DNA of 64,000 nucleotides from Deltaproteobacteria bacterium (GTDB lineage Bacteria; UBA10199; SPLOWO2-01-44-7), in the NCBI GenBank assembly GCA_016203765.1, contig JACQMB010000145.1, positions 1,124 to 65,123 on the forward strand, given 5' to 3'. Numbering within the stretch: position 1 is the first letter of the stretch; the number at the start of each line of letters is the position of its first letter. The translations under genes and the position numbers were made by a program. A model generated the notes under the pieces. That model saw only the letters and a program-made list of their open reading frames with translations. It was not told where the DNA came from and searched no databases. Shown here one piece after another: positions 2,617 through 30,041 of the stretch.

Positions 2617-2632
2617 TGCCCTAGGTTGCCGT

Positions 2633-8038: not shown

Positions 8039-8039
8039 C

Positions 8040-12970: not shown

Positions 12971-14011
12971 ATGTTTAACGATAAATCCGTATTGATCACC
13001 GGCGGAACCGGTTCCTTCGGCCAAAAAATGACTAGGGTTCTGATTCAGGAATATCGCCCGAAAAAACTGATCATCTTCAGCCGGGATGAGCTCAAACAAT
13101 TTGAAATGGCTCAAAAATGGAATCCAGCCCGGCTCCCTTTTCTGCAGTATGTCCTGGGGGATGTCAGGGATCGTGATCGTCTTATGCATGTTTTTAAAGG
13201 CGTGGATTGTGTGATTCATGCGGCGGCCTTGAAAATGGTTCCGGCCGCGGAGGGGAATCCCACCGAATATATCCAGACTAATGTGATAGGGGCGATGAAT
13301 GTGATCGATGCCGCCTTAACCAACGGGGTAGAGCGGGTTATGGCCCTCTCCACCGACAAGGCTTGTAACCCGGTCAATCTCTACGGGGCCACCAAACTTT
13401 GTTCCGACAAACTCTTTGCCGCGGCCAATGCCAGACGGGAACCATCCCGAACCCGGTTTGCTATTGTTCGCTACGGCAATGTTCTGGGATCGCGCGGTTC
13501 GGTGGTCCCTTTTTTCAGAGAGAGGGCCAAGACCGGCAAACTTCCCATTACCGACAAACGGATGACCCGTTTTTGGATTACTCTCGATCAAGCGGTCCAT
13601 TTTGTCATTTCAACCCTGGAAAAAGCAAGGGGAGGGGAAATTTTTGTGCCGCGCATCCCTTCAATGAAACTTGTCGATTTGGCGCGGGCGATTGCGCCCC
13701 ACTGTGCGCTGGAAGAAGTGGGGATGCGTCCCGGGGAAAGGATCCATGAAACATTAATAAGCGAAGACGACGCCCGCAATACGATCCGATTTAATAATTG
13801 TTATGTGATTTGTCCTCATACCCCCTCCCCGGAGGAGCTTCTGAAATCTTATGACGGTAAGGGGCAGATTTGTCCCGAAGGATTCAGCTACAGCTCCGCC
13901 GGAAACAGCGAATGGCTCGGCGTGGAAGAGTTAAAAGAAATTGTGGGACAGATCGAATCCGATTACGCCATCGAACAATCCCGATGGTCGATGGAAGATG
14001 TCCCGCAATAA
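12971..14011 (+). CDS. pseB: UDP-N-acetylglucosamine 4,6-dehydratase, PseB/FlaA1-like
   Basis: It is preceded by a good RBS (AAGGAG). The match to my recollection of PseB runs along the whole length: VLITGGTGSFG, FSRDELKQFEM, GDVRDRDRL, STDKACNPVNLYGATKLCSDKLF, VRYGNVLGSRGSVVPFF, RMTRFWITL, GGEIFVPRIPSMK. Confidence 0.85.
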   Translation: MFNDKSVLITGGTGSFGQKMTRVLIQEYRPKKLIIFSRDELKQFEMAQKWNPARLPFLQYVLGDVRDRDRLMHVFKGVDCVIHAAALKMVPAAEGNPTEYIQTNVIGAMNVIDAALTNGVERVMALSTDKACNPVNLYGATKLCSDKLFAAANARREPSRTRFAIVRYGNVLGSRGSVVPFFRERAKTGKLPITDKRMTRFWITLDQAVHFVISTLEKARGGEIFVPRIPSMKLVDLARAIAPHCALEEVGMRPGERIHETLISEDDARNTIRFNNCYVICPHTPSPEELLKSYDGKGQICPEGFSYSSAGNSEWLGVEELKEIVGQIESDYAIEQSRWSMEDVPQ

Positions 14012-14015: not shown

Positions 14016-14933
14016 ATGACCAAACCAAGGGTTCTGATTACCGGTGTCAGCGGTCTGTTGGGGAGTAACCTGGCCTGGTTGTATCGAGACCGTTATTCCG
14101 TTTTGGGCCTTTACCGCCGTCATCCGGTTTCATGGCCCGGCGTTCGGACCCTCCGGCAGGACCTTCTGGAAATTTTGAGCTTGAAAAAATGCGTTCATGA
14201 TTTTCGTCCGGATATTCTGATTCATTGTGCCGCGCTGACCGATGTGGATGCCTGTGAGCGGAACAAACAGGAGGCGGAACAAGCCAATATCGAGGCGACC
14301 CGAAAGGTGGTGGATTGTTTGAACGGCTTGCCCACGCGGCTGATCCACATATCGACCGACTCTGTTTTTGACGGTGAGAAGGGAAATTACTCGGAGACGG
14401 ACCCGGTTCATCCGGTCAATCATTATGGCTGGACAAAATGGAAGGCGGAAACGGAGTCGTTAAAACGGAAAGGGACCTTGGTGTTCAGAACGACCGTTTT
14501 CGGATGGAACGTTCAGGAAAAGGAGAGCCTGGGGGAATGGGTTTTGCATCGGATGATGCGCAAGGAAAAGATTAACGGATTTAGCGACGTTGTTTTTTCT
14601 CCCCTTTACACCATGGAGTTGGGAAGGCTGATGGAAAAAACTTGGCAAAAGGGGCTGGCCGGTCTCTATCACTGCGCCGGATCGAACGCCTGCTCCAAAT
14701 ATGATTTCGCCGTTCAACTTGCCCGTGTGTTTCATCTGGATGAAACAGCCGTGAATTCGATCTCGGTGGATGCCCTTGCCCTGCCGGCCAGGAGGCCCAA
14801 GAATCTTTCGCTGAAAACATCTAAGTTAACGGAATCATTAGGAAATTCATTGCCAAGCGTTCAGCGATCGATTCAATCCTTTTTTGATGATTTTGAGCGC
14901 GGCCTCCCCCGGAAATTAAAAGGACTTGCATGA
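14016..14933 (+). CDS. RmlD-like NAD(P)-dependent sugar reductase (dTDP-4-dehydrorhamnose reductase family)
   Basis: Motifs are VLITGVSGLLGSNL, the catalytic YGWTKWKAE and HISTDSVFDG. The start could be ATG 14016 or ATG 13998; the ORF-track start at 13941 is probably too long. Confidence 0.75.
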   Translation: MTKPRVLITGVSGLLGSNLAWLYRDRYSVLGLYRRHPVSWPGVRTLRQDLLEILSLKKCVHDFRPDILIHCAALTDVDACERNKQEAEQANIEATRKVVDCLNGLPTRLIHISTDSVFDGEKGNYSETDPVHPVNHYGWTKWKAETESLKRKGTLVFRTTVFGWNVQEKESLGEWVLHRMMRKEKINGFSDVVFSPLYTMELGRLMEKTWQKGLAGLYHCAGSNACSKYDFAVQLARVFHLDETAVNSISVDALALPARRPKNLSLKTSKLTESLGNSLPSVQRSIQSFFDDFERGLPRKLKGLA

Positions 14934-16432
14934 AAGCACTGAGCCGCCAACAACTCGACGCCCTCTTTCGTGAAATCCGCGGGCGCTATCCCCGCCTGGC
15001 CGTTTTGGCCATTCCCTGGATTTTTTCCACGATGTGGTCCTATCCTTTAAAGCCGTCTCCCGAACATGTTCAACCCTTCCCGATTTTCGTTGCCATCTTG
15101 TTTCGGGTTCCCTGGCTGGCGCTGCGCGCCATCGCGTTAAGCGGGCGTATCCTATGGCTTCGCCTTTCCTTTCGGAATGCCCTGCGCGATTATCGTTCCC
15201 GATCGTTTGAGGGGCTGGCCAAGACCTGGGCTTTTTCCATGGAAAATTCCGGGGGGGACCGAGATTTTTATTTGGGGGATTTGGCGGAACAGCTCCGCTC
15301 CAGGAATGTTCGGGTGTTGACGTTGTATGATTACGGAACGAATAAAAAAGGATGGGGGAAGAGACAAAACGGGCCGCGGCTACCGGAGCTGGCTCTTCTT
15401 TCGTTCCGGTCCGTATTGAAGATGTTGGGGGAACAATGCCGGGCGGCGCTCCTTCTCTATTTCAAGGGGTTCGGGGAGAGGGATAAAACGTTGCGGGGTT
15501 TGATCTGGCTGGCCGGCCGGGATTGCCTCCGCGCGATGACTCTGCGCAACGGGCTCTTTTATTGGATCGGCAGGGAGGCGGCCCGCCGATGGAAACCCGT
15601 TTTTTTTATAACCTTGTATGAAGGGAATGCCTGGGAAAAGTGTCTGGCCTTGGGCCTTCGCTCCGTCGATTCCCCCTGCAAACTGGTGGGCTATCAGCAT
15701 ACGGTCATTATGCCTCACGCGTATGAACTGCAACGGCCGTCCAATTCCCTCGCGGGGATCAAACCTCCGGAATTGATCCTGAGTGTCGGCACGCGGCCGA
15801 TGCAATGGTTGCAGGCAAGTCATCAGCCGTTCGGAGTCCGTTTCATTCCCTTTGGGACCTTTCGTTATTTCAATCCGGACGAAAAGAGGGGAATCCCCCG
15901 TCCGGACGTCAAAACACTTTTGGTTCTGCCGGAAGGGATTGTCTCCGAGATGATTTTTCTGTTCGACGCGGCCCTCGATTTGGCGTCCCTCTTGCCCGAT
16001 TACCGGATTTTATTTCGTTGTCATCCCGCGATCCCTTTCGAAAAAGTCCGTTCGCGGTTAAAGCGGGATCTGGGGGACTGTCCCAATGTGTCCCTCTCCG
16101 GGGCGGGCCGCATTGAGGAGGATTTCCTGGCCGCTTCCATGATTCTTTACCGCGGTTCTTCGGCCATTCTCTATGCCATTTTAAGCGGGCTGAAACCGTT
16201 TTATTTGCGCAAAAATTCCGAGGAAGAGGTGATTGATCCGCTTTTTGATCTGGCCTCCTGGCGTCAGCGGGCCGATTCGGTTTCGGAATTGGCGGGCCAG
16301 ATGAGGAGCTATTCGGAAAGCGCTTTGTCCGAAATCCAAGATGATTGGCACAAGGCGAATCGGTTTGTCGGGGAATATGTACAGCCGGTCGGACCCCGGT
16401 CTTTTGACCGTTTTTTGGAGGCGCTCCAATGA
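14930..16432 (+). CDS. Hypothetical protein, possible GT-B-like / ulosonate-transferase-like
   Basis: It starts with an ATGA overlap and has a hydrophobic N-terminal segment. The C-terminal region KTLLVLPEG...ILFRCHPAIP...ILYRGSSAILYAILSG resembles the protein at 60256. I recognise no named family with confidence. Confidence 0.55.
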   Translation: MKALSRQQLDALFREIRGRYPRLAVLAIPWIFSTMWSYPLKPSPEHVQPFPIFVAILFRVPWLALRAIALSGRILWLRLSFRNALRDYRSRSFEGLAKTWAFSMENSGGDRDFYLGDLAEQLRSRNVRVLTLYDYGTNKKGWGKRQNGPRLPELALLSFRSVLKMLGEQCRAALLLYFKGFGERDKTLRGLIWLAGRDCLRAMTLRNGLFYWIGREAARRWKPVFFITLYEGNAWEKCLALGLRSVDSPCKLVGYQHTVIMPHAYELQRPSNSLAGIKPPELILSVGTRPMQWLQASHQPFGVRFIPFGTFRYFNPDEKRGIPRPDVKTLLVLPEGIVSEMIFLFDAALDLASLLPDYRILFRCHPAIPFEKVRSRLKRDLGDCPNVSLSGAGRIEEDFLAASMILYRGSSAILYAILSGLKPFYLRKNSEEEVIDPLFDLASWRQRADSVSELAGQMRSYSESALSEIQDDWHKANRFVGEYVQPVGPRSFDRFLEALQ

Positions 16433-17430: not shown

Positions 17431-18361
17431 TTTTGATTTGTCGAAAGTCAAACCACTCGAGGAAGTGCTGAAATACCGGACTTTTTGCCTGGAGGCGGTC
17501 CGTCAATCCTGCCGGGGGGGGACGATACGGCGAAACCATTCTCCGGTCAGCGGGGCCCGGTTGCTTTCCTGGGGAACCGTGGACGGTTTGGAATACGGAA
17601 TTTGCCCGAAAACGGGGAGTCTTTTTCTGACGGAGATCCCTGCTCCCGCCGCGTGGGCTTCTCTGCTCGATAAGGTCAACCGGTACCGTAATGAGCAGGC
17701 CTTCGACGTTCATTTAAAACAGTCTCGTTTAACCAGCGTTTATGAACCCAAAAAGGCTTGGATTGAAGACACGCTCCGGTGGCATCACCTGGAGAGACCC
17801 AAGGTGCTTGAGGTGACGACCCCCCCCAGTGAGTTGACGGCCCTCTTGCAAACCAGTCCCCTGGTGGAGGAGGTTGTCGTCTGGAATGAGACGAACCCCC
17901 GCCCGGAAGGGCTTTGGCCGGAAGCGGCGGACGCGGCCATTCTTTTGGAATCGCTTGATCGCTCGGGGGATCCGGCGGCATTTTTAAAGCGCGTCCATGA
18001 AAGTTTGAAACCCGGCGGGCTCCTTTTTTTGACGGCCCTGCTCGCCTCCGGTTTCGACATGAAGGTGTTGGGGACAAAAAATCTCTATCTGTGCCCCCCC
18101 GACCGGACGAATTGCTTTAGCCTGAACGGATTAACGCAACTGCTGGCTCAATCCGGTTTTACCTTTATTGAGGTGAGTACTCCCGGCATCCTGGATGTGG
18201 AGATTGTCCGGGCCCATTGCTTGCAGGATCCGTCCATTCGCCTCTCTCCGTTTGAAACAACGTTGCTCGATGCCGATCCGGAAAAACTGTCGGCATTGCA
18301 AATATTTTTACAGCAGAGCAATGTAAGCTCGTTTGCCCGCGTGGTGGCCAAAAAGAACTAA
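17405..18361 (+). CDS. Putative SAM-dependent methyltransferase-like protein
   Basis: The methyltransferase-like post-I/II region AAILLESLDRSGDPAAFLKRVHESLKPGGLLFLT is present. Motif I is degenerate (VLEVTTPPSE), so the function is uncertain. Confidence 0.55.
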   Translation: MQSIQTCFNFDLSKVKPLEEVLKYRTFCLEAVRQSCRGGTIRRNHSPVSGARLLSWGTVDGLEYGICPKTGSLFLTEIPAPAAWASLLDKVNRYRNEQAFDVHLKQSRLTSVYEPKKAWIEDTLRWHHLERPKVLEVTTPPSELTALLQTSPLVEEVVVWNETNPRPEGLWPEAADAAILLESLDRSGDPAAFLKRVHESLKPGGLLFLTALLASGFDMKVLGTKNLYLCPPDRTNCFSLNGLTQLLAQSGFTFIEVSTPGILDVEIVRAHCLQDPSIRLSPFETTLLDADPEKLSALQIFLQQSNVSSFARVVAKKN

Positions 18362-18891
18362 TGGTTATTTGGGTGACAGGATTGTCCGGAGCGGGGAAAA
18401 CGACCCTTTGTCGCGCCCTCTATGACAGATTGAAAACACATATTCCTCAGCTGGTCTGGCTCGACGGGGATGTTGTGCGAAAGGCTTTTGGAAATGATTT
18501 GGGATATTCCGAAGAGGAAAGGCAGACACAATTGAAGCGTTTGCAAAATCTCGCCAAGGTTCTTTCCCATCAGGGGCTGGTTGTTTTGGTTGCCGTTTTG
18601 TATTCTCATCCCGACTTTTTAAAATGGAATCGGCAGAATTTTCCGGAGTATTTTGAAATCTATTTATCCGTGGCTCTCGATGTGTTGCGGCAAAGAGACG
18701 AGAAAGGACTTTACAACGGGTCCGTGAGAAACGTTGTCGGGCTTGATATCCCTTGGCACCCCCCCCAAACCCCGGCTTTGAAAATAAATGTTGATTATAA
18801 AATACCGCCCGAACGATTAGCGCTGGATGTTATCTCTGCTATTCCAAAACTGGCAGAATGCCTGGAAATGCCGAGGAGAAAAAGAATATGA
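18361..18891 (+). CDS. Adenylyl-sulfate (APS) kinase family protein
   Basis: It has the P-loop [11 protein letters not shown] and [21 protein letters not shown] (the LDGD motif). The usual FISP-type segment is replaced by LYSHP. It is translationally coupled to both neighbours (TAATG at the 5' end, ATGA at the 3' end). Confidence 0.75.
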
Positions 18892-20495
18892 AAAAAACGA
18901 CGCAGTTGCGGCAATTATTATTTTCAGAAAGTTTGGAATTTTTGTGCGAGGCCCACAATGGGTTGAGCGCTAAGATTGTCGAAGAAGCCGGTTTTAAAGG
19001 GATCTGGGGAAGCGGATTATCTCTCTCCGCGGCGATGGCCGTTCGAGATAATAATGAGGCCAGTTGGACGCAGATTTTGGAGACGGTGGAGTTTATGTCC
19101 GATGCCACATCCATTCCTGTCTTGCTGGATGGAGATACCGGATATGGGAATTTTAATAATGTCCGCCGCCTTGTTCAAAAACTCGAGCAAAGAGGCATCG
19201 GCGGTGTTTGCATCGAAGATAAGCTATTTCCTAAAACCAATAGTTTTCTGAGGGGGGAAAAACAGCCGCTGGCGACTCTGGAAGAATTTACGGGCAAAAT
19301 CAAAGCAGCCAAAGACTCTCAGCGAGACAGTGATTTTTGCCTGGTGGCTCGGACCGAGGCCTTTATTGCCGGGTGGGGGTTATTCGAGGCCTTGCGCCGC
19401 GCCGATGCCTATCATCGTGCCGGGGCGGATGCCATTTTGATTCATAGTAAACTTTCCAAGCCGGATGAAGTCTTGGCATTTAAGAAAGAGTGGGGTCGCC
19501 GTTCTCCGGTGGTGATTGTTCCTACGACCTATTACGCAACACCGATGGAGGTTTTCCAAGAAGCGGGTTTTAGTACCGTTATCTGGGCCAACATGATTTT
19601 GCGCAGTGCGATCACGGCCATGAAAGCCGTTGCCTCACAACTGAAAAGGGAAAATTCTCTTTTGAGTGTGGAGGATAAAATTGTGCCCGTCAAAGAAGTG
19701 TTTCGTCTCCAAGGGGATCAGGAGTTGGAAGAGGCGGAAAGACTTTATTTGCCAAGCGTCGCCTCGGAAACCAAGGCCGTTATTTTAGCCGCTTCTCGCG
19801 GGGAAGTCTTAGATGCGTTGACCCAAGAAAGACCGAAGGCCATGATCCCCGTTGGGGGAGAGCCCTTGTTATTTCGGCAGATCCGAACGCTGCAAGAGGC
19901 GGGCGTGAAAGACGTGACCGTGGTGCGGGGTTATTGCAAAGAGGTGATTGACGCCCCTGGCCTTCGCTACGTGGATAATGAGATTTATGCCTCATCCAAG
20001 GAACTGGTTTCCCTATGGAAGGGAATCCAAAATTTATCGGGGCCCGCATTTATCGCCTATGGGGACATCCTTTATAAGAAGTATGTTCCAACTTTGCTGT
20101 TGCAGGAGGAAGAGGATTTTGTCATCGCCGTCGATTCTGAATGGGAGAGGAGCGGCAATCGAAAAAGATATGCTGATTATGTCTCCTGCGACGTCCCTTA
20201 CCGGCGGACATTATTGGATCACCCCGTTTATCTGACGAGGATGGATGCAGATTTAGTGCCGGCAACCATTTGTGGAGAATGGATTGGTCTTCTGCGGGCT
20301 TCAGCGGAGGGGATAAAAATTATTCAAAAAATATTAGCCGAACTGTCTCAACAAGAAGCATTTTCAAAGATGCGTATGGCGCATCTGTTCAATGCATTGA
20401 GACAAAAAGGTTATAAGGCCAGGGTTCATTATATTCGAGGCCATTGGTTGGATGTCGATGACCTTACGGATCTCGTTACGGCACACGCCTTTTAG
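18888..20495 (+). CDS. aepX: Phosphoenolpyruvate mutase fused to a C-terminal nucleotidyltransferase domain
   Basis: The ATG at 18888 overlaps the upstream stop (ATGA). The N-terminal domain has LDGDTGYG and the PEP-mutase-discriminating [10 protein letters not shown] (EDK-X5-NS, nt 19215-19244). The C-terminal roughly 240 aa are NTP-transferase-like ([32 protein letters not shown]). Confidence 0.85.
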
Positions 20496-20503
20496 AAAAT
20501 CGC

Positions 20504-21667
20504 ATGATTCAAGCCAAAGACTTTATTGAACCGGCATTGGAGCGAGGATATCGCTTCTGGTCAGGCGTCCCTTGTTCTTTTTTAACGCCGTTTATTAACT
20601 ATGTCATCCAGAATAAAGAGCTCCGGTATGTGGGGGCCTCGAGCGAAGGGGAAGCCGTCGCGATAGCGATCGGTAGTTACCTGGCCGGCAATAAATCGGT
20701 GGCCATTTGCCAAAACTCCGGTCTAGGGAATATGGTCAATCCGTTGACAAGCCTCAATTATCCTTTTCGGATTCCTTTGCTTTTGATTGTGACGCACCGA
20801 GGAGCCCCTGGCATCCAAGATGAACCCCAGCATGTCTTGATGGGTCAAATTACGGAAAAATTGTTAGAAACGATGCGCATCCCTTACCTCCCCTTTCCTG
20901 AGGAAGGTCGGGATGTGCAAAGGACTCTGGCAGAAGTGGAAAATTATATTGAAAAAGAGAATCTGCCGTTCGCTTTGATTATGAAAAAGGATGCTGTCAC
21001 TTCCTATCCTTTAGAACAAAAAATCACGTTTCACCATTTTCCCGTCTCCCCTGTTGAGGGGAAATTTTATTGGTCCGGTGATTCCCGAATGCGCCGCTTG
21101 GAAGCGATTCAGATAATTAAGGAAACGGCATCGCAACGAGCCCTTCTGATAGCTACAACCGGAAAAACCGGTAGAGAACTGTTCGCATTGGGTCATCAAT
21201 CCAATCAAATTTATATCGTGGGCGGGATGGGATGTGCTGCCGGAATCGGGTTGGGATTGAGTCTCGGACAGCCTTCCAAAAAGGTTTTGGTTTTGGATGG
21301 AGACGGGGCGGTCTTAATGAAGATGGGCACTTTGGCAACGATAGGGCACTATCAGCCAAAAAATTTGATTCATATTGTTTTGGACAATGAGGCTCATGAA
21401 TCAACGGGGGCACAGTTTACGGTGTCGGGGAGCACAGATATCGCCTCTGTCGCCTCTGCCTGCCGCTACCGAAAGCTTTTTCGCTGCGATCAGGCAAAAG
21501 ACTTAAAAAGGTATTTGGATTTGGCCATGCAATCCGAGGGCCCTGTGATGATTCATGTCAAAATCGCCGTCGGATCGGACCCCAAGTTGGGCCGTCCCAC
21601 GTTGACGCCCCATGAAGTCAAAGATCAGTTTGTCCGCCGAATGAATAAAGAAAGGAGCGATTTATGA
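20504..21667 (+). CDS. aepY: Phosphonopyruvate decarboxylase (ThDP-dependent)
   Basis: Motifs are FWSGVPCSFLTPF, GEAVAIAIGSYLAG and the ThDP motif LDGDGAVLMKMGTLATIG...IVLDNEAHESTG. It lies immediately downstream of the PEP mutase. Confidence 0.85.
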   Translation: MIQAKDFIEPALERGYRFWSGVPCSFLTPFINYVIQNKELRYVGASSEGEAVAIAIGSYLAGNKSVAICQNSGLGNMVNPLTSLNYPFRIPLLLIVTHRGAPGIQDEPQHVLMGQITEKLLETMRIPYLPFPEEGRDVQRTLAEVENYIEKENLPFALIMKKDAVTSYPLEQKITFHHFPVSPVEGKFYWSGDSRMRRLEAIQIIKETASQRALLIATTGKTGRELFALGHQSNQIYIVGGMGCAAGIGLGLSLGQPSKKVLVLDGDGAVLMKMGTLATIGHYQPKNLIHIVLDNEAHESTGAQFTVSGSTDIASVASACRYRKLFRCDQAKDLKRYLDLAMQSEGPVMIHVKIAVGSDPKLGRPTLTPHEVKDQFVRRMNKERSDL

Positions 21668-23004
21668 TAACAAAAGACCCCACCTTTTTGAAACGCCAGG
21701 GGGCCAATTTTTTATCTCTGATCAATGATTTAAAAAGAAACCGAAAAGCGGCCGCCCAAGATTTGCAGGTTTCCCTTGAGACAATAGAGAAGATCATCGC
21801 CGGGGAAAGCGATATTCCTCCGGGATTGATTCAGAGAGCTACGGAAGTTTGGCCGGTGAATCGGCGCGATTTCATGATTATGGAAGATGATTGTCCGGAG
21901 GGGGTTTTGGTGATGCGGGGAGAGGCGTCTGAAAAAAGTTCCCGCATTTTTACCCGGGGGGGAGCGGATTATTATGAATATCGGGATACGGCCATGTCGA
22001 AAGTGGCCCCCTTTCGTCCTGAATGGATTTTGGAACTTTGCACGGTGGAGGACAATGACCCGAAAAATTCCAGTTTGCGGTGGAATAACGGCCACTTTAT
22101 GCATCAGTTTACGATGTTTGTGGGCCCGGTCAATTTTTATTATATTGAAGAGAACCAAAAAAAGGTGATGGTCGCAAACACGGGGGATTCCATGTACATT
22201 ACCCCCTTTGTCCCGCACACTTTTGCGACGAGACAAAGGCAAAAAGGTCTCATTCTGGCTTTGACCTATGGAAACAAATTGCTCGGAGACGTCCAACAGG
22301 AAATGTCGAGCCTGGGTGGAGATATTCCGGGCCAATTTCTTTTGGAAACACGAAGCCGAGACGCCTATTTTGCCTCTCTGTTACAATTGCAGATGGCCGC
22401 TTTAAGCCTCTCTGCGGAAGATTTGATTGTGCAGACCGGTTTGCCTGCCGATCGCGTTCACCGGTGGATAAAGGGTGAAGCCTTTCCAACTCCTGAAGAA
22501 TACGGGAGGTTGGCTGATCGTTTGAATGTGAATGTTTATGATTTAATGCCTCCCGACGCTTTTGATCCCGGAGTCATTGTTAGCTATTTGTCGCATTCCA
22601 AGCCTAGGCGGTATTTTAATTGCCAAATCAGAGAACTCGCTTCCATTCGCTATCTCCCTTACTCCAAGGCCCTTCTTCTGGATGTTTTGGAAAAGGCAGA
22701 GACGTTTCCCTTCAAAGTGCCCCTGCATCAATACTGCTATAATTTTGGAGATGTGTCGGTGACGCTCCGATGGGATTGGAAAGGACAGACCAGAGAAGTG
22801 GAAGTGGGTCCCAATGATTCGGTTTATGTGAAACCGTTTGTGCCTCACTCCTTTTCGCCTTGTGCGGCCAAGCCAGCTTCTTTGTTGAGTTTGCGCATCG
22901 GCGGAAAAGGCACTGGAGAGCCCCAAAGAGAACTGTCCCATATTGGAAAAAAGAATATCCAACGCATCTATCAAGAGTATTCACTTTGGTATAAGGAAGA
23001 ATAA
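21664..23004 (+). CDS. mpnS: MpnS/HEPD-family two-cupin non-haem iron oxygenase, residue pattern favouring methylphosphonate synthase
   Basis: It starts with an ATGA overlap and is 446 aa. It has two HTH-like plus cupin repeats (ANTGDSMYITPFVPHTFATR and VGPNDSVYVKPFVPHSFSP). The first cupin carries N141, H144, Q148, F158, I179 and H185. It sits between ppd and an iron ADH. The family call is stronger than the MpnS-versus-HEPD call. Confidence 0.6.
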   Translation: MITKDPTFLKRQGANFLSLINDLKRNRKAAAQDLQVSLETIEKIIAGESDIPPGLIQRATEVWPVNRRDFMIMEDDCPEGVLVMRGEASEKSSRIFTRGGADYYEYRDTAMSKVAPFRPEWILELCTVEDNDPKNSSLRWNNGHFMHQFTMFVGPVNFYYIEENQKKVMVANTGDSMYITPFVPHTFATRQRQKGLILALTYGNKLLGDVQQEMSSLGGDIPGQFLLETRSRDAYFASLLQLQMAALSLSAEDLIVQTGLPADRVHRWIKGEAFPTPEEYGRLADRLNVNVYDLMPPDAFDPGVIVSYLSHSKPRRYFNCQIRELASIRYLPYSKALLLDVLEKAETFPFKVPLHQYCYNFGDVSVTLRWDWKGQTREVEVGPNDSVYVKPFVPHSFSPCAAKPASLLSLRIGGKGTGEPQRELSHIGKKNIQRIYQEYSLWYKEE

Positions 23005-23007
23005 GCG

Positions 23008-23721
23008 ATGAAAGCCATTTTGCTCACCGCGGGACAAGGAAGCCGTTTGCTGCCCTATACGCAATCGATGCCAAAACATTTGCTCCCCCTCGGTTCCACC
23101 ACCATTATTCATCGAACAATCAAAATATTAAGGGATATCGGGATTCAAGACATTGCAATGGTCGTAGGTTATTTAAAGGAAAAATTTTATGAGGCCTTTC
23201 CTAAAGATATTCAATTTTATACCAATGAAGCTTATCCAGTCACCGACCAGGCCGCGAGTTTGGCGAAGGCAGTGGAGAAATTGGAAGATGATTTTTTGGT
23301 CATTGCAGGGGATTTATTTTGTCCCCGAAAGGTTTTTGTTCAGATATTGGAAAAACCCCATCCCATCTGTCTAGCCATTGAAAAAAGGAAAGGGCCATTT
23401 AATGACGTGACGGAAAAGGTCTGCACGAGAGGGGAGTCCATTTTTAAGATCGGGAAATTGAACGTTTTGAACGGAGAAGCCAATGGAGAATTTTTGGGAT
23501 TGACAAAGGTGAGAAAGGAAAAGGCGTCGTTTTTTCTCCGACATCTTAAAGCCGCGCTTTTAGAAAACCCCAGGAGCGCCATCATTCACGTCCATCAAAA
23601 AATAATCGATGCCGGATGTCCTCTTCCTTATATCCACTGCGGAGATTCCTGGTGTGAAATTGATGAGCCCGCCACCTGGAAAAAGGCAAAAGAGATTTTT
23701 CAAAAAACCCCTGATTACTGA
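23008..23721 (+). CDS. Nucleotidyltransferase (sugar-phosphate or phosphonate cytidylyltransferase-like)
   Basis: It has a canonical N-terminal signature: MKAILLTAGQGSRLLPYTQSMPKHLLPLG. Confidence 0.8.
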   Translation: MKAILLTAGQGSRLLPYTQSMPKHLLPLGSTTIIHRTIKILRDIGIQDIAMVVGYLKEKFYEAFPKDIQFYTNEAYPVTDQAASLAKAVEKLEDDFLVIAGDLFCPRKVFVQILEKPHPICLAIEKRKGPFNDVTEKVCTRGESIFKIGKLNVLNGEANGEFLGLTKVRKEKASFFLRHLKAALLENPRSAIIHVHQKIIDAGCPLPYIHCGDSWCEIDEPATWKKAKEIFQKTPDY

Positions 23722-23779
23722 GGAGCATGATTTAGATCATGTTGACTCTTGTTTGCATTAGTTCTAGCGGTGACCGGTT

Positions 23780-25270
23780 ATGGGAAACGTGCCTGCATGC
23801 CGGGTGCCCGTGACCCCTTCATTAGAAGCATTGTTAAATCCGGAACTCTTCAAAAAGGAACCGCTTTTCACCTCTCCTTTAAAACCGCCGCAAAAAGGGG
23901 AGAAGGTTCATCTCCTTTCAGAAGAGGACGTCAATGCCATTCGAAAACTAAGAGGGGCGGTGGTCGATCTCCATCCCGGAATGGGGGGCGTTACCCCGGA
24001 CAAGCTGATTGCCATGATCAAGAGCGGCATCCGATTGACTTCTATCGATTATATGATGACCCGGGGTTGTAATTTCGAATGCACTTGGTGTTTCGCGGGT
24101 TCGGGTCCTTTGCAAAAAGAATATCTTCCCTTTCAAAAACTAGCATCTATTACGCAAGAAGCGGCAAAGTTGGGCGTTACCCTTTTTATTTTAACGGGCG
24201 GAGAACCCCTTGTTTATCGGGACCCGGCGTTAGGGCAGCAGAAAGGCATTGGGGATCATTTTTTTAGAGTCGTGAAGATGATTCGAGATACTTACAGCCA
24301 ACAAGGCCTCTCCGCGAAAATATTGACCTTCGACGATGTCGCATTGATTTCTCCCGAGATTGCAAAGCGGTTTGCGGAATACGAAATAGGTCTCTGTACA
24401 AAAGGCGACACCCTTGCCCCCGAGCTCCAAGATTATAAAGTCAATCAGGTTGGGGCTTTTGACAAGATGCAAAGAGGTTATAAGAATCTTGTGGATGCCG
24501 GTTATGGAAGGGACCCAAGACTAAGAGTCGTCGTGAATTCTGTTTTGGATCACACCACCTTCGATGGCATGTTGGATTTGCATCTATGGGTTATGGAGAA
24601 TGGTTTTGATCATTCCATTGTCCCCGTTCATTATTGCGGCAATGCTGAAAATGAAGATCAAGAGGCAGGGGTTCACTCTCCTCATGTCAAGGTTTTGTAC
24701 GATGTTCTTTCTGAGATTGACAGGAAGCGCTTTGGCATTGAGTGGAAACCCTGGTCCGCCTTTCCTTACAATAAAACTTGCAACCGTAACCGCTCTGGGA
24801 TTCATATCCGGGCCAATGGCGATGTGACGGCTTGTTCCGAATCGCCGGGGCCTGAGCTAACTGGGCGTTACACTTTCGGTAATATTTTCGCCCCTGGTTT
24901 TTCTCTCGAAAAAGTTGTGAAGGATGAAAAGTTAGAAGCCTATCGAGAGGAGTTTAAGAGAGGATATGGGACCTTTGTTTGTTCTCCGGAGGTGTGTGAT
25001 CTGTACGCCCATGACCTTTGTTTGGGCGGGTGCGCCACCCGCTCCGCTTATTCCAAAATAGATATTCAAACGGGCCTCGTCGTTAAAAATGAAAATTTTC
25101 ACAATTACAGTGAGAAGAGAGAAGACCCCTTATGTCCTGCTTGGACTTTGTTGGCTATGCGCCAGGGGATTTTGAGAGAAGGTTTATTAGACAATATCCG
25201 GCATCGGATCATTTCCAGAAGTACAAGACTAAAAGATTTGGAAGGAATGGAACATTCCATTCCTTGTTAG
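23780..25270 (+). CDS. Radical SAM protein with C-terminal SPASM/twitch-like Cys cluster
   Basis: The CxxxCxxC motif is at residues 97-104 (RGCNFECTWCFAG). GGEPL is present. The C-terminal Cys-rich region is CSESPG...CSPEVCDLYAHDLCLGGCATRS. The start is uncertain because about 90 aa precede the cluster. Confidence 0.8.
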   Translation: MGNVPACRVPVTPSLEALLNPELFKKEPLFTSPLKPPQKGEKVHLLSEEDVNAIRKLRGAVVDLHPGMGGVTPDKLIAMIKSGIRLTSIDYMMTRGCNFECTWCFAGSGPLQKEYLPFQKLASITQEAAKLGVTLFILTGGEPLVYRDPALGQQKGIGDHFFRVVKMIRDTYSQQGLSAKILTFDDVALISPEIAKRFAEYEIGLCTKGDTLAPELQDYKVNQVGAFDKMQRGYKNLVDAGYGRDPRLRVVVNSVLDHTTFDGMLDLHLWVMENGFDHSIVPVHYCGNAENEDQEAGVHSPHVKVLYDVLSEIDRKRFGIEWKPWSAFPYNKTCNRNRSGIHIRANGDVTACSESPGPELTGRYTFGNIFAPGFSLEKVVKDEKLEAYREEFKRGYGTFVCSPEVCDLYAHDLCLGGCATRSAYSKIDIQTGLVVKNENFHNYSEKREDPLCPAWTLLAMRQGILREGLLDNIRHRIISRSTRLKDLEGMEHSIPC

Positions 25271-26425
25271 ATGTCCTCCCCTTTCTTTAATCCTGTTCAG
25301 GTTGTTTTTGCAGAAAGGCTTTCGGAAGGCTTGCCTCCTTTGCTGAAAGGAAGACGTGCGTCTGTTTTGACGACGAAAGGAATGAAGCAAAGAGAGGGAT
25401 TCAGACTTTTAGAAGAAGCCCTGGGTGGAAAAAGTTGCGGGGTTTGCACCGATGTTGTCCCGAATCCGGATGTGGAATCCATTCTTTCTTGCACGCGGCA
25501 GATTTCCTCCTTCAAACCGGAGATACTCATTGCCTTGGGAGGCGGAAGTGTTTTGGATGCAGCGAAGGTGGTCGCCATTTTGCTTGCGGCCCCTTTTTCT
25601 AAGACTGCCCTGCAAGAGATTTTGGATGGCAACATTTCTTTGCCCAAGGAAATGGATGCCTTGCCGGTGATTGCTATCCCTACCACGTCGGGGACCGGTT
25701 CGGAGGTAACTTCGTGGAGCGCCGTTTGGAATAAAAAGACAGGCCAGAAATATTCTCTGTCGCATCAGTGTATGTATCCCGAGGCCGCGCTTCTGGTTCC
25801 TGCCCTCACGGCAACCCTTTCTTATGAAAACACGCTGTTTCCCGCTTTGGACGCCCTTTCCCAAAGCATGGAAACCGTTTGGAACAGGAATGCCAATCCC
25901 GTTTCCGATGCGCTGGCCATGCAGGCAATGACCTGTCTGTTTGGAATTTTAAAGAAGGACTTTCGCCGTTCTTTTGAAGCTTTGTCCGTGCGGAAGGAGT
26001 TGCAAAAAGCCAGTCTGTTAACGGGCCTTGCCTTTAGCAACACGGAAACGGCGATCGCCCATTCCCTTTCCTATCCTTTGACAGGCAAAAAGGGGGTTCC
26101 GCACGGTTTGGCTTGTAGTTTTACCCTCCCGGAAATTTTGCGTTTTAATTATCAAGGGGCTCCGGAACGCGTAACCCTTGTTTTAAAAGCCCTAGGTTTT
26201 TCTCATGTTGAAGAAGCGATAGAAGCTTTGTATATGGTTTTTGAAGACTTAGGTATTTGGCAGTATCTTAGAAATTACATTATGGACCCTTGTGAACTGC
26301 AAGAGTTGCAACACCTTTTGGTCTCTGCTCAGCGCGCCCGGAATAATATCGTCCCCTTTTCTCAAGAAGCGGCTGTAGAGTTATTGACCGCCGCTTTTGG
26401 CCGCATCGTGGGCCGAAGATGTTAA
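25271..26425 (+). CDS. Iron-containing (group III) alcohol dehydrogenase, candidate phosphonoacetaldehyde reductase
   Basis: Motifs are ALGGGSVLDAAKVVA, IPTTSGTGSE and a His-rich metal site (AHSLSYPLTGKKGVPHGLA). The functional call comes from its position in the phosphonate sub-cluster. Confidence 0.75.
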   Translation: MSSPFFNPVQVVFAERLSEGLPPLLKGRRASVLTTKGMKQREGFRLLEEALGGKSCGVCTDVVPNPDVESILSCTRQISSFKPEILIALGGGSVLDAAKVVAILLAAPFSKTALQEILDGNISLPKEMDALPVIAIPTTSGTGSEVTSWSAVWNKKTGQKYSLSHQCMYPEAALLVPALTATLSYENTLFPALDALSQSMETVWNRNANPVSDALAMQAMTCLFGILKKDFRRSFEALSVRKELQKASLLTGLAFSNTETAIAHSLSYPLTGKKGVPHGLACSFTLPEILRFNYQGAPERVTLVLKALGFSHVEEAIEALYMVFEDLGIWQYLRNYIMDPCELQELQHLLVSAQRARNNIVPFSQEAAVELLTAAFGRIVGRRC

Positions 26426-27189
26426 AAGATCATCTCCGACATCGCAGAATAGTGTTCGGCGCTTGGACCTCTCTGGCCCATCCCCAAATTACCGAGATGT
26501 TCGCCTCCGTCATGAAGCCCGATTTCATCGGGATCGACATGGAGCATTCCACCATCAGCCAGGGGGAAGCGCAAAGGATTATCGCCGCCGGCCAGGCCTG
26601 CGGGGTTCCCGTTTTGCCGCGGCTGGCCTCCCATGATATCGAAGCGATGCGCCGCCTCTGCGATTCGGGGGCAGACGGCCTGATCGTTCCCATGGTCAAT
26701 ACGCCCGAGGAACTGGAACGGGTGGTGAAGGGGTGCAAATATCCCCCCGTGGGCCAAAGGGGCTACGGGGTGGCGCGGGCCCAGGGGCACGGTGCCCGTT
26801 TTGATGAATATATTTCCGCGTGGAATGCAAAATCGGTTCTGATCATTCAGATTGAATCCATTCAAGCCGTGGAAAATATCGACCGGCTGTTGGACAATGA
26901 GCAGGTGGATGGAGTGATGATCGGCCCCTACGACATCTCCGGCTCGCTGGGAATTCCGGGAAAGCTGATCGACCCCAAAGTTTTGCAGGCCGGCGAGCGG
27001 GTCCTTGCGGCGTGCGCGCGCCGGGGAAAGGCTTGCGGCACGCAAATTACGGAACTCCCCGACGAGAAAAAAATTAAGGAGGCCATCGATCGCGGTTATA
27101 CCGTCATTGTCCTGGCCTCCGATGTCTTTTTGATGTGGCGATGGTCGGAACAAATGAGAGGGTTGATCGCTCGTGTACGGCAGTCTTGA
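26419..27189 (+). CDS. HpcH/HpaI family class II (pyruvate-type) aldolase
   Basis: Motifs are FGAWTSLAHPQITEMFA, DFIGIDMEHS, LIIQIESIQAVENID and MIGPYDISGSLG. Confidence 0.85.
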   Translation: MLKDHLRHRRIVFGAWTSLAHPQITEMFASVMKPDFIGIDMEHSTISQGEAQRIIAAGQACGVPVLPRLASHDIEAMRRLCDSGADGLIVPMVNTPEELERVVKGCKYPPVGQRGYGVARAQGHGARFDEYISAWNAKSVLIIQIESIQAVENIDRLLDNEQVDGVMIGPYDISGSLGIPGKLIDPKVLQAGERVLAACARRGKACGTQITELPDEKKIKEAIDRGYTVIVLASDVFLMWRWSEQMRGLIARVRQS

Positions 27190-27778
27190 AACCGTTGTCC
27201 AAAGGGCAAAGGCACTGATTTTTGATTTTGACGGGACGCTGGTCGATTCCAACCCCATCAAATTGTACGCCTTCGAAAAATGTTTTTCGGATTTTGTGGA
27301 AAAACAAAGCGAGATCATGGACTATTGCCTGGCGCATCATCATGTCTCGCGCTTTGATAAATTTCGGCATGTTTTTGAAACAATCCTGCACCGACCCTAT
27401 ACGCCGGAGTGGGAGCGGAAAATGCTGAGGCGCTATGCCGAGGAGACGACGGAGCAGGTGATCGGCGCCCCCGAAATTCCAGGGGCCGTCTCCTTTGTCA
27501 AGCGTTGGAAAAAGAAGAAGGAGGTCGTTTTGCTCTCCACGACGCCGGATGAGATTTTGAAACATATTTTGGCCAGGCGGGAGATGGAACATCTCTTTTC
27601 CGTCATTCGCGGAGCCCCAGTTCATAAGGCCTCGTGGATGGACGGGTTTATGCGGGGAAGGGGTTTGGAGAAGAGGGAGGTGGTGTTCTTCGGCGATTCC
27701 GACGAAGACGCCGAGTCGGCAAAAACGGCCGGGGTGATTTTTGTGAAGGTGGAAGGAGATCAAACGTTTCGATCATGA
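27173..27778 (+). CDS. HAD-superfamily hydrolase (phosphatase)
   Basis: GTG start. It has motif I LIFDFDGTLVDS and motif IV FFGDSDEDAESA. Confidence 0.8.
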   Translation: MYGSLETVVQRAKALIFDFDGTLVDSNPIKLYAFEKCFSDFVEKQSEIMDYCLAHHHVSRFDKFRHVFETILHRPYTPEWERKMLRRYAEETTEQVIGAPEIPGAVSFVKRWKKKKEVVLLSTTPDEILKHILARREMEHLFSVIRGAPVHKASWMDGFMRGRGLEKREVVFFGDSDEDAESAKTAGVIFVKVEGDQTFRS

Positions 27779-28539
27779 TAAAGAACCAAACCATGGATCA
27801 AAGATTTTCTTTGCGGGGCAAGGCGGCGGTGGTCGTCGGCGGGGCGGGTTATCTTTGTTCCGCTTTATCGAGGGCGATGTTGGAATCGGAAATGAAGGTC
27901 GCTATTTTGGATGTTGTGAAGGAACCGCCAGCCGATTTGTCTGGAGAGGTTTTCTTTTTGCAGTGCGACGCCGCTCAAAAAGAGGCATTGTTGAAAGGCC
28001 GCGAGGCCGTTCTACAAAAATTCGGCCGTGTGGACGTTTTGTTAAACGGCGCCACCTGCAACGCCCCAACCCCCTTTTTGGAAATCAGCGAGCCGGAGAT
28101 TGACCGGATCTTGCGAGCCAATGTCTACGCCACCCTCTACGGCTGCCAGGTGTTTGGAGAGGCGATGGTTAAACAACGCAAGGGAAGCATTATCAATTTT
28201 GCCTCTGCCTCCAGCACAACGCCCCTCTCCAGGGCCTTTGTCTACTCCGCCGCCAAGGCGGGGGTTCTGAATCTGACCAAAAACCTGGCCAGGGAATGGG
28301 CCCCCTATCAGGTGCGCGTCAACGCCCTTCAACCCGGTTTTTTCCCGACCGAGTGGAGTCGGAAGCATTTTATTGACGAGGAACGCCAGGCGAAAATTTT
28401 GGGTCATACTCCGATGAGGCGCTTTGGCAAACCGGAGGAATTGACCGGGGCCGTTCTTTGGCTGGCCTCCGAAGCCGCCTCTTTCGTGACCGGCTCCGTT
28501 GTAACCATAGACGGCGGTTTTACCGCCATGACGATTTGA
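27775..28539 (+). CDS. Short-chain dehydrogenase/reductase (SDR)
   Basis: The ATG at 27775 overlaps the upstream stop (ATGA). Motifs are GKAAVVVGGAGYLCSAL, YSAAKAG and PGFFPT. The ORF-track start at 27634 is an over-extension. Confidence 0.85.
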   Translation: MIKNQTMDQRFSLRGKAAVVVGGAGYLCSALSRAMLESEMKVAILDVVKEPPADLSGEVFFLQCDAAQKEALLKGREAVLQKFGRVDVLLNGATCNAPTPFLEISEPEIDRILRANVYATLYGCQVFGEAMVKQRKGSIINFASASSTTPLSRAFVYSAAKAGVLNLTKNLAREWAPYQVRVNALQPGFFPTEWSRKHFIDEERQAKILGHTPMRRFGKPEELTGAVLWLASEAASFVTGSVVTIDGGFTAMTI

Positions 28540-28541
28540 AT

Positions 28542-29285
28542 ATGACGAAGAGTGTTGCCATCACCGGAGGCAATCGCGGCATCGGAAAGGGAATCGCCGA
28601 TTATTTTTTGGCCAAGGGGCATCGGGTGGCTGTTTGCTCCCGCTCCCCAAGAGAAAAAGGTTTGGCGAAGGCCATCCTGCACCTGCAAATAGACGTTCGT
28701 AAAAGGGAAGACCAAAAACTGTTTTTGGCGCATGTTCAAGAATCCTTTGGGGGGTTGGATGTCGTTGTCCATTGCGCCGGCGTTTCCCGGTGGAGGCCGC
28801 TCGAAGCGGCGGACGAGACTTTCGTGGAAGAGGTGATAGAGACGAATTTGCTGGGGACGTTGTGGGGTTGCCAGGCGGCCGCGCAGGTTTTGGGGCCGGG
28901 GGGGGCCATTGTCAATGTCTCCAGCCTGGCGGGCAAGCGCGGCTCCGCCAATAACAGCGTCTATTGCGCCTCCAAGTTTGCCGTCAACGGACTCACGCAG
29001 GCCTTGGCCAAGGAGCTTGGGCCGCGGGGGGTGCGCGTGAATGCGGTTTGTCCGGTTTATGTGGAAACCGATTATATTCTTCAATCCCTGAGTGAAAAAA
29101 ACTCTCCGGCGGGGGGAGGATCGGTGCGGAGTTATCTGGAAAATTTTGCCAAAACGCAGACGGCCCTGGGGCGTCTCCCCAGAGTGGACGAGATTGCCAA
29201 GACCGTTTATTTTTTTGCCAGCGACGAGGCCTCCGCCGTTACCGGACAATGTCTCAACGTGGATTGCGGAACCTTTCCCCAATAA
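28542..29285 (+). CDS. Short-chain dehydrogenase/reductase (FabG-like SDR)
   Basis: ATG at 28542. Motifs are VAITGGNRGIGKGIA, NVSSLAG, YCASKFA and NAVCPVYVETD. Confidence 0.85.
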   Translation: MTKSVAITGGNRGIGKGIADYFLAKGHRVAVCSRSPREKGLAKAILHLQIDVRKREDQKLFLAHVQESFGGLDVVVHCAGVSRWRPLEAADETFVEEVIETNLLGTLWGCQAAAQVLGPGGAIVNVSSLAGKRGSANNSVYCASKFAVNGLTQALAKELGPRGVRVNAVCPVYVETDYILQSLSEKNSPAGGGSVRSYLENFAKTQTALGRLPRVDEIAKTVYFFASDEASAVTGQCLNVDCGTFPQ

Positions 29286-30041
29286 ATGACCACAAAAATT
29301 GCCGCCGTGATTCCCGCCCGCATGGCCTCGCAGCGCCTTCCGGGCAAGCCGTTATTGGAAATCGAGGGACTGCCGATGATTGAGCACGTTCGGCGGCGCG
29401 TCCTTTTGGCCAAGGGGTTTTCCCGCGTGGTTGTCGCCACCTGTGATCCGATCATTGCCGAGACGGTTGAAGATTACGGGGGAGAGGTTTTAATGACCAG
29501 CCCCGCGCATCAGGTGGCCACCGAGCGGATCATCGAGGCGATACAACATTTGGACTGCACGCATGTGATCAATGTCCAAGGCGATGAAGTTTTGGTCTTG
29601 CCCTCCGACCTGGAAAAAATGACTTCGGCCATCCAGGCCCATCCGGAAAAGCCGGTTTGGAATGCGGTGGCGCCCCTTGAGAGCGAAGAGACGCTCAAGG
29701 ACCAATCGATCGTCAAGTGCCGGCTTTCCCCTTCCGGCCGGATTCTCTCCTTTGTACGCGAGGGATCTTCCGAGACGGGGCCGCTCTATTGGGTGATCGG
29801 CCTTTTGGCTTATCGTCGCGGCATTTTAGAGGAGTTTGCGCGGTGGAAGCGGAGCGCCTTGGAAGCGAAGGCCTCGATTGAGCAGATGCGCTTTTTGGAA
29901 AACGACGTGCCGATCGCCTCCGTTCTTTTTGCCAAGGCCTATCCCGGCATTAATGAAGAGCGGGAGGTAGGCCCGGTGAAGGATTATTTGCACGAGGACA
30001 GGCTTCAGAGATCCGTTTTGCGAAAGGTCCTTGCCTCATGA
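29286..30041 (+). CDS. kdsB: KdsB-like cytidylyltransferase (CMP-ulosonic acid synthetase family)
   Basis: Motifs are IAAVIPARMASQRLPGKPLLEIEGLPMIEHV, VVVATCD and INVQGDEVLV. The family call is solid, but the substrate need not be Kdo. Confidence 0.7.
   Translation: MTTKIAAVIPARMASQRLPGKPLLEIEGLPMIEHVRRRVLLAKGFSRVVVATCDPIIAETVEDYGGEVLMTSPAHQVATERIIEAIQHLDCTHVINVQGDEVLVLPSDLEKMTSAIQAHPEKPVWNAVAPLESEETLKDQSIVKCRLSPSGRILSFVREGSSETGPLYWVIGLLAYRRGILEEFARWKRSALEAKASIEQMRFLENDVPIASVLFAKAYPGINEEREVGPVKDYLHEDRLQRSVLRKVLAS

Follow-up and report, generated by a model that had tools for sequence, protein, structure and literature searches.

A candidate methylphosphonate synthase in the phosphonate cassette of a surface-glycan island from a groundwater Deltaproteobacterium

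In oxygenated water, C-P lyase frees methane from methylphosphonate, whose known producers (Nitrosopumilus, SAR11 and some Prochlorococcus) come almost exclusively from the sea. In studies of a large lake no mpnS, the gene for methylphosphonate synthase, was found (PMC10734540), and a groundwater study that detected mpnS in only three samples asked where the methylphosphonate in that setting originates (PMC11978286). The 64,000-nucleotide stretch analyzed here, referred to as the window, comes from a groundwater Deltaproteobacteria metagenome-assembled genome (MAG; assembly GCA_016203765.1, contig JACQMB010000145.1) and carries a gene that an initial annotation, made from the letters alone, proposed to encode a methylphosphonate synthase (MpnS) rather than a hydroxyethylphosphonate dioxygenase (HEPD). 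The locus thus raises the question as to which of these reactions its product, the query below, would catalyze, and to what the resulting phosphonate might be attached. From homology, residue signature, predicted fold, family tree, gene co-location and synteny, we infer the catalysis and the product, as well as an activation step and an acceptor; the reading frame very probably encodes an MpnS-type oxygenase with methylphosphonate synthase activity. Features of the window are collected in Table 1.

A search of all PDB chains returned the MpnS of Nitrosopumilus maritimus (6B9S/6B9T) with an E-value of 3.9e-132 and 444 bits, aligning query residues 4-444 with residues 8-451, compared with 278 bits for the class II HEPD of S. 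albus (6B9R). HppE, whose match is confined to the first cupin of the query, and the class I HEPD PhpD are both remote, at 34 and 21 bits, which argues that the query belongs with neither. BLASTP identity is 48.5% to N. maritimus MpnS versus 38.2% to S. albus HEPD. The aligned active-site stretch reads HQFTMFVGPVNFYY...MYITPF in the query, HQFTYFIGEVNFYY...MYITPF in MpnS and YQFTYFVGPVNYYF...VWGLPF in HEPD. His144, Gln148 and His185 align with the 2-His-1-Gln triad of MpnS (His148, Gln152 and His190), while Gln148, Phe158 and Ile179 lie opposite Gln152, Phe162 and Ile184 of MpnS, and opposite Gln, Tyr and Gly of S. albus HEPD. The signature of the query is therefore the H/Q/F/I/H of MpnS and not the H/Q/Y/G/H of HEPD, and neither the Tyr/Gly pair nor a Glu ligand occurs in the columns of Gln148, Phe158 and Ile179, the last of which is presumably where PhpD would have its Glu ligand. 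In published work on MpnS, packing by the Phe and Ile is said to keep the Gln on the metal, leading to methylphosphonate rather than to hydroxymethylphosphonate and formate. The triad together with the Phe and Ile has been used by others to call MpnS in groundwater metagenomes (PMC11978286).

The residues on which the initial annotation built its proposal (Asn141, His144, Gln148, Phe158, Ile179, His185 and a C-terminal Trp) all prove to be exact, and the nucleotide range given for the first cupin runs, as claimed, from the codon of Asn141 (22084-22086) to that of His185 (22216-22218); the Trp is Trp442, with four residues after it. Its comparison of the spacings, +4, +10, +21 and +6 in the query against +4, +10, +22 and +6 in MpnS, was checked on the N. 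maritimus sequence (His148, Gln152, Phe162, Ile184 and His190) and holds, the query being one residue shorter between Phe158 and Ile179. Ten positions are invariant in 68 MpnS-type sequences that share 46-78% identity, namely Lys24, Arg98, Tyr106, Asn141, His144, Gln148, Phe158, Ile179, His185 and Trp442, and their counterparts on the N. maritimus sequence are Lys28, Arg102, Tyr110, Asn145, His148, Gln152, Phe162, Ile184, His190 and Trp449. Of these, we take Lys28, Arg102, Tyr110, Asn145 and Trp449 to form the pocket for 2-hydroxyethylphosphonate (2-HEP) in MpnS, and their equivalents in the query (Lys24, Arg98, Tyr106, Asn141 and Trp442) are all conserved.

The 446-codon open reading frame (ORF) begins with an ATG, and its translation agrees with the strings quoted in the initial annotation. 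Two repeats of a helix-turn-helix (HTH)-like domain and a cupin had been proposed, and the duplication is visible in the predicted secondary structure, with helices at 6-70, strands at 81-202, helices at 209-294 and strands at 304-412. Of these domains, Pfam picks up the second of each alone (HTH_31/HTH_3 and Cupin_2), and some homologues are named 'transcriptional regulator with XRE-family HTH domain' by JGI. That the protein should be such an XRE-family regulator with sensory cupin domains nonetheless deserves next to no weight, since MpnS, HEPD and HppE contain the same HTH-like domains within their own structures, the metal and substrate residues are invariant, and the gene is translationally coupled in a biosynthetic operon: its ATG, in a 4-nt overlap with the stop codon of Ppd, follows a Shine-Dalgarno sequence, AAGGAG, 7 nt upstream.

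An AlphaFold2 model of the query, built on the alignment of the 68 MpnS-type sequences, reached a pLDDT of 91.2 and a pTM of 0.85. Foldseek searches with this model gave MpnS (6B9T/6B9S) as the best match, with a TM score of 0.93 at 48% identity, compared with 0.90 and 36% for S. albus HEPD and 0.69 and 17% for PhpD; HppE covers one half of the model only. Bit score, TM score and identity thus agree with the initial proposal that the protein is of the MpnS rather than of the HEPD type. PhpD (3G7D) and HppE (1ZZ8) are likewise non-heme iron enzymes built on cupins, with hydroxyalkylphosphonates as substrates, yet they are only 17-22% identical to the query in the Foldseek alignments; PhpD has a 2-His-1-Glu site where the query has Gln in the ligand column, and HppE is a single HTH-cupin unit of about 198 amino acids, as opposed to the 446-residue double unit of the query. 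The likeness to N. maritimus MpnS, on the other hand, extends to the length of the protein, the duplicated HTH-cupin architecture, the H/Q/H triad, the Phe and Ile beside the Gln, the Lys/Arg/Tyr/Asn/Trp pocket positions, and a neighborhood with genes for phosphoenolpyruvate (PEP) mutase (Ppm), phosphonopyruvate decarboxylase (Ppd), an iron-containing alcohol dehydrogenase (Fe-ADH) and a nucleotidyltransferase. Apart from the one-residue difference in spacing, the query differs from it in lying in a separate clade of groundwater-type bacteria, and its cassette differs in the fusion of Ppm to a nucleotidyltransferase, in the presence of genes for an adenosine 5'-phosphosulfate (APS)-kinase-like protein and a radical S-adenosylmethionine (SAM) enzyme, and in its place within a pseudaminic-acid-type island.

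The phylogeny of the family points the same way. A search of 1.84 billion cluster representatives returned 431 clusters (50% identity) at E <= 1e-3, and among the 231 full-length family sequences that were aligned, 199 carry H/Q/F/I/H and 20, including S. albus HEPD, carry H/Q/Y/G/H. In a neighbor-joining tree with 100 bootstraps and no outgroup, the query and its relatives at 57-76% identity make up a clade supported in 100/100 replicates. The clade attaches to the group with N. maritimus MpnS, the HEPD sequences of the Tyr/Gly type are placed in another, and a split that holds the query and N. maritimus MpnS, and is free of Tyr/Gly sequences, is found in 90/100 bootstraps. The query therefore groups with MpnS and away from the Tyr/Gly types, as had been anticipated for an MpnS. 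It is very improbable that the query is a class II HEPD-type 2-HEP dioxygenase, which would yield hydroxymethylphosphonate and formate, the products of the S. albus enzyme, instead of methylphosphonate. Its fold, substrate and H/Q/H ligands are indeed common to S. albus HEPD (278 bits, 38% identity and a TM score of 0.90), and Tyr/Gly types occur at more than one place in the tree and are interleaved with Phe/Ile types in parts of it; however, Phe158 and Ile179 stand where HEPD has Tyr and Gly, the S. albus enzyme sits in a separate Tyr/Gly clade, and the query is nearer to MpnS by score, identity and tree.

The query is identical to the NCBI entry MBI4125592.1, 'hypothetical protein HY466_06670', from a Deltaproteobacteria bacterium groundwater MAG, with a partial copy in MBI4223728.1, and a sibling contig (L082; GCA_016206415.1, JACQRO010000099.1) shows 100% identity across twelve proteins in a row. 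No NCBIfam model matches the query, and for this reason the NCBI pipeline leaves it unnamed, whereas JGI names two near-clade members methylphosphonate synthase. Judged by its sequence, the query is thus an additional member of the known MpnS family, of a kind already recognized by the JGI annotation, and not a new chemistry. Among the GTDB species representatives, which do not include the window's own genome, the nearest relatives are from Elusimicrobiota (62% and 58%) and from a groundwater Omnitrophota MAG (59%), while Nitrosopumilus and other marine sequences are 44-49% identical to the query.

If the query is an MpnS, its substrate would have to be supplied, and the genes around it encode a plausible route. 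The cassette (18361-26425) is co-directional and partly overlapping, in the order APS-kinase-like protein, Ppm fused to a nucleotidyltransferase, Ppd, MpnS, nucleotidyltransferase, radical SAM/SPASM enzyme and Fe-ADH. The placement of Ppm and Ppd upstream of mpnS, and of Fe-ADH as the third gene downstream, had been noted in the initial annotation and is confirmed by TIGR02320, TIGR03297 and the gene positions; all three genes lie less than 4 kb from mpnS on the + strand. Ppm scores 371 bits against TIGR02320 (cut-off 320) and has, at residue 120, the diagnostic EDKx5NS motif that serves as a criterion for PEP mutases (PMC6697681; Acker et al. preprint). In the proposed pathway, PEP mutase would convert PEP to phosphonopyruvate, Ppd would decarboxylate this to phosphonoacetaldehyde, and Fe-ADH would reduce the aldehyde to 2-HEP. 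As the last step, MpnS, as a non-heme Fe(II) oxygenase, would convert 2-HEP and O2 to methylphosphonate and CO2/bicarbonate; the iron would be held by His144, Gln148 and His185 of the first cupin, with Phe158 and Ile179 predicted to pack against Gln148 and so to hold it on the metal. Four enzymes of these families have been reconstituted in vitro to take PEP to methylphosphonate (PMC12619172).

The association of these genes is general. Ppm was found in 47, Ppd in 44 and Fe-ADH in 48 of the 52 MpnS-family loci with adequate flanks (85-92%), and the order Ppm-nucleotidyltransferase, Ppd, MpnS, nucleotidyltransferase and Fe-ADH is kept in L081, which holds a 75%-identical relative, and in the Elusimicrobiota loci L001 and L028. 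G+C content is 46-50% over the cassette (18000-26000) versus 53-57% in its flanks, a contrast suggestive of a mosaic insertion. When 14-33 kb was scanned for promoters and terminators, sites were no more frequent than in shuffled sequence, so that the operon limits are drawn from the gene overlaps alone; no tRNA genes were found.

Could the oxygenase act on something other than free 2-HEP? An MpnS-fold enzyme that takes another or a derivatized substrate, such as nucleotide- or glycan-linked HEP or a C-methylated analogue, so that free methylphosphonate is not the final product, is brought to mind by the two nucleotidyltransferases, the SAM methyltransferases and the radical SAM enzyme in or beside the cassette, and by fosfomycin biosynthesis, where the next enzyme in fact takes CMP-HEP as its substrate (PMC6697681). 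Yet the residues that match the 2-HEP-binding set of MpnS are all invariant, the radical SAM gene occurs in only 2/52 MpnS-family loci, and N. maritimus MpnS acts on free 2-HEP (PMC12619172), which makes such a substrate improbable.

Several points weigh against a methylphosphonate synthase, or temper it. The Fe-ADH, at 325 bits, falls below the 424-bit cut-off of TIGR03405, the phosphonate-associated family. Deep in the tree the branching is poorly supported, with the drawn MpnS superclade present in only 21/100 replicates, and Tyr/Gly and Phe/Ile types interleave in places, with a few Tyr/Gly sequences nested among Phe/Ile ones; for these reasons, the residue signature is a stronger argument than the phylogeny. 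The Phe/Ile rule itself reportedly comes from a few characterized enzymes, and the roles of the residues are cited here at second hand. The activity would be a prediction not only for the query but alike for the whole clade at 57-76% identity. MpnS needs O2, while a groundwater MAG with at least four radical SAM proteins encoded in the window hints at a low-oxygen lifestyle for the host. Finally, a phosphonyl transferase and an acceptor were sought in the window, and neither was identified. Even with these points, methylphosphonate synthase remains by far the most probable activity of the query.

Table 1. Predicted genes and other features of the window, with positions counted from its first nucleotide.
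Feature	Position	Strand	Remarks
HisF/HisH-like genes	1723-3274		His_biosynth and GATase matches; adjoin WbuX
WbuX-type N-acetyl sugar amidotransferase	3305-4519	+	TIGR03573 327 bits, above cut-off
NeuB-family nonulosonic acid synthase	6986-8038	+	PF03102 330 bits
PseB (UDP-GlcNAc 4,6-dehydratase, inverting)	12971-14011	+	TIGR03589 474 bits, cut-off 408; pseudaminic-acid-type marker
APS-kinase-family P-loop kinase	18361-18891	+	PF01583 113 bits; NF004041 135 bits, above cut-off
Ppm (PEP mutase) fused to MobA-like nucleotidyltransferase domain	18858-20495	+	Ppm at residues ~1-295; PF12804 at ~305-430
Phosphonopyruvate decarboxylase (Ppd)	20504-21667	+	TIGR03297 423 bits, cut-off 312
mpnS, methylphosphonate synthase candidate	21664-23004	+	446 aa, (HTH + cupin) x 2
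Active-site segment, first cupin	22084-22218	+	N141, H144, Q148 (predicted iron ligand), F158, I179, H185
Stand-alone LicC/PntC-like nucleotidyltransferase	23008-23721	+	PF12804/PF00483; candidate phosphonate-activating enzyme; 3 nt after mpnS
Radical SAM/SPASM enzyme, uncharacterized	23780-25270	+	496 aa; PF04055 and PF13186; between nucleotidyltransferase and Fe-ADH
Fe-ADH, probable phosphonoacetaldehyde reductase making 2-HEP	25271-26425	+	Best NCBIfam match TIGR03405 (Phn_Fe-ADH), 325 bits
Module of HpcH/HpaI aldolase, HAD hydrolase, two short-chain dehydrogenases/reductases, KdsB-like cytidylyltransferase and 2-hydroxyacid dehydrogenase	26419-30982	+	
Sulfotransferase-like protein (Sulfotransfer_3)	30955-32148	+	PF13469 32 bits
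Wzy_C / O-antigen ligase-polymerase family membrane protein	34708-35991	+	PF04932; six hydrophobic segments
Large radical SAM protein	55070-56821	-	Adjoins low-G+C zone
Large radical SAM protein	56766-58985	+	In low-G+C zone, 56-60 kb
AlgX-like SGNH protein	59016-60218	+	In low-G+C zone, 56-60 kb

The activation of methylphosphonate and its attachment to surface polymers are, to our knowledge, understood in outline only, even for N. maritimus. In the window, the cassette lies within an island of about 42 kb, in which all genes from 23 to 42619 are on the + strand and either overlap or are separated by short gaps, and which the Wzy_C protein marks as one for surface-glycan assembly. In addition to the PseB, NeuB, WbuX and HisF/HisH-like proteins, the island encodes a DegT aminotransferase, a PglD-like acetyltransferase, a PseF-like cytidylyltransferase, a carbamoyltransferase and YfhO-like membrane proteins, and homologues of NeuB, WbuX and HisH/HisF are also found 6-9 kb from mpnS in L001 and L028. 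The module of genes that follows Fe-ADH looks like a route separate from that of PseB and NeuB, leading to a second CMP-activated keto-deoxy sugar acid; it is shared with L081 (17626-21359), where five of its genes were matched by tblastn at 56-76% identity.

The proteins of known structure nearest to the stand-alone nucleotidyltransferase include LicC (1JYK) and the T. denticola nucleotidyltransferase/aminotransferase (6PD1), and the position of its gene is kept in L001, L028 and L081. The fusion of Ppm to a PF12804 domain is the commonest Ppm fusion, and PntC-type enzymes cytidylylate phosphonates for cell-surface tailoring (PMC6697681). The Pnt pathway described by Rice et al. in 2019 (PMC6697681), in which PntC cytidylyltransferases are often fused to Ppm, thus resembles the cassette in combining a Ppm-PF12804 fusion with a second nearby nucleotidyltransferase in a cell-surface glycan context. 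It differs in that the characterized PntC activates 2-aminoethylphosphonate (AEP), while the query cassette has no AEP transaminase and its phosphonate is presumed to be methylphosphonate or 2-HEP. The two LicC/PntC-type nucleotidyltransferases, one fused to Ppm and the other encoded after mpnS, probably convert the product of the pathway to a nucleotide conjugate, and most likely the activated methylphosphonate would then be esterified to the pseudaminic-acid-type surface glycan of the island.

The initial annotation had held that the genomic context would reveal what methylphosphonate is attached to. This claim stands insofar as the island points to nucleotide activation and to a pseudaminic-acid-type glycan; it does not extend to the transferase and the acceptor, which were not identified. 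L081, L085 and L167 each have a TagF-like Glyphos_transf gene inside their phosphonate cluster or close to it, and no equivalent was detectable in the window. Two proteins of the island, encoded at 8031-10049 (+, 672 amino acids) and 14930-16432 (+, 500 amino acids), are kept in the syntenic L081 at 48% and 35% identity. Neither has a Pfam match even at E = 5, nor any BLASTP similarity to the cassette-side Glyphos_transf proteins of L081 and L085; the 500-residue protein gives weak NCBIfam matches to 'surface carbohydrate biosynthesis' and is encoded directly 3' of Fe-ADH in L081. Both are candidate glycosyl or phosphonyl transferases.

The gene for the APS-kinase-like protein overlaps the start of the Ppm-nucleotidyltransferase gene by 34 nt, and the protein has the appearance of an ordinary APS kinase, with the APS kinases of the PDB scoring about 95 bits against it; its sequence speaks neither for nor against a nucleotide-phosphonate substrate. 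An APS-kinase gene adjoins a nucleotidyltransferase gene, or sits within one gene of it (about 1 kb), in five arrangements: in the window, in L001 and L028, in L084, in L085 and in a marine group with the order APS kinase, nucleotidyltransferase, Fe-ADH and radical SAM. The loci with this pairing include the phosphonate clusters L102-L116, a sulfotransferase-like gene is often nearby, and sulfotransferase homologues occur in the APS-kinase-containing phosphonate loci L085, L103, L105, L115 and L116. Campylobacter jejuni uses a cytidylyltransferase and a kinase to produce CDP-phosphoramidate 3'-phosphate, the donor for capsule modification (PMC11800397). The O-methyl phosphoramidate pathway of this organism (Cj1415-Cj1418) thus resembles the window in having a nucleotidyltransferase beside an APS-kinase-family kinase in a capsule or glycan locus, but the query island has no glutamine kinase or amidase, and it does have a sulfotransferase-like gene. 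Cj1415 is of the APS-kinase family. It is conceivable by analogy that the enzyme encoded here makes a 3'-phospho-nucleotide-phosphonate donor. Ordinary sulfation of the same glycan, dependent on 3'-phosphoadenosine 5'-phosphosulfate, would be a simpler explanation of the gene, because the kinase resembles ordinary APS kinases and a sulfotransferase-like gene is present.

The radical SAM/SPASM enzyme has a CxxxCxxC motif at Cys97, Cys101 and Cys104, and its family is unusually well conserved, with a mean column identity of 62%. It is 66-71% identical to the products of mpnS-adjoining genes in three archaeal MAG loci, whose MpnS proteins are 46-48% identical to the query. Relatives at 55-78% identity come from Woesearchaeota, Patescibacteria, Omnitrophica, Acidobacteria, Proteobacteria and a contig that is likely archaeal, and the family is represented in the window and in L005, L012, L017, L084, L085, L166 and L167. 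Among 25 radical SAM-anchored loci flanked by 5 kb or more on either side, Fe-ADH is present in 21, Ppm in 17, Ppd in 15 and an MpnS-family gene in 8; L085 combines the HEP pathway and the radical SAM gene without MpnS, and L083 has the radical SAM gene without any phosphonate genes. Because of these counts and of its rarity among the MpnS-family loci, the enzyme looks like an accessory of hydroxyethylphosphonate-type clusters rather than of MpnS specifically. No close solved relative was found by sequence, the best being MoaA at 33 bits, and Foldseek with a model of the enzyme returned only generic SPASM relatives (anSME and SuiB, with TM scores of about 0.5 and 14-17% identity), so that no chemistry can be assigned to it. 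Nothing of relevance emerged from a literature search for radical SAM/SPASM enzymes of phosphonate clusters.

Taken as a whole, the cassette could belong to a phosphonoglycan pathway not described before, used by bacteria and archaea that are non-marine and live at low oxygen, with nucleotide-activated HEP or methylphosphonate, processing by the radical SAM enzyme, and attachment to a pseudaminic-acid-type glycan. Within this scheme, which we put forward tentatively and consider rather unlikely as a whole, the donor could, by analogy with C. jejuni, be a 3'-phosphorylated nucleotide-phosphonate from the APS-kinase-like enzyme, and the radical SAM/SPASM enzyme may occur almost only in hydroxyethylphosphonate clusters. 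If such a pathway does exist, the organisms that carry it would be a source of methylphosphonate for the oxic methane reported from groundwater and lakes, where mpnS has been hard to find. The methylphosphonate synthase assignment itself matters in a simpler way. A well-supported MpnS clade in groundwater-type bacteria (the Deltaproteobacteria MAG, Elusimicrobiota and Omnitrophota) provides concrete candidates for the source of methylphosphonate in lakes and groundwater, and the syntenic island provides leads on how it is activated and attached, in its nucleotidyltransferases, APS-kinase-like, sulfotransferase-like and radical SAM proteins, and pseudaminic-acid genes.

The wider family shows further variation. 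The H/Q/F/I/H sequences are abundant in public data and span a much wider diversity than the marine MpnS clade, reaching down to about 28% identity to the query; several members are 560-950 amino acids long, apparently through the fusion of extra N-terminal regions, and a few carry the variants F/L, L/F, V/M or H/T. L166 (7758-8996) and L167 (7748-8965) encode short MpnS-family proteins of 405-412 amino acids without the second HTH region, directly 5' of the radical SAM gene. The short protein of L167 retains the Phe and Ile, while that of L166 has Ala and His there yet retains K/R/Y/N/H/Q/H/W. The mpnS homologue of L028 (9983-11327), a locus of the complete Elusimicrobiota genome CP096137.1, is broken in two: its ORF stops near 10900 and the match resumes in another frame, through either an assembly frameshift or a pseudogene. 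Downstream of the island, G+C content drops to 38-44% at 56000-60000 of the window, the zone of a large radical SAM protein and an AlgX-like SGNH protein, with another large radical SAM protein adjoining it on the opposite strand.

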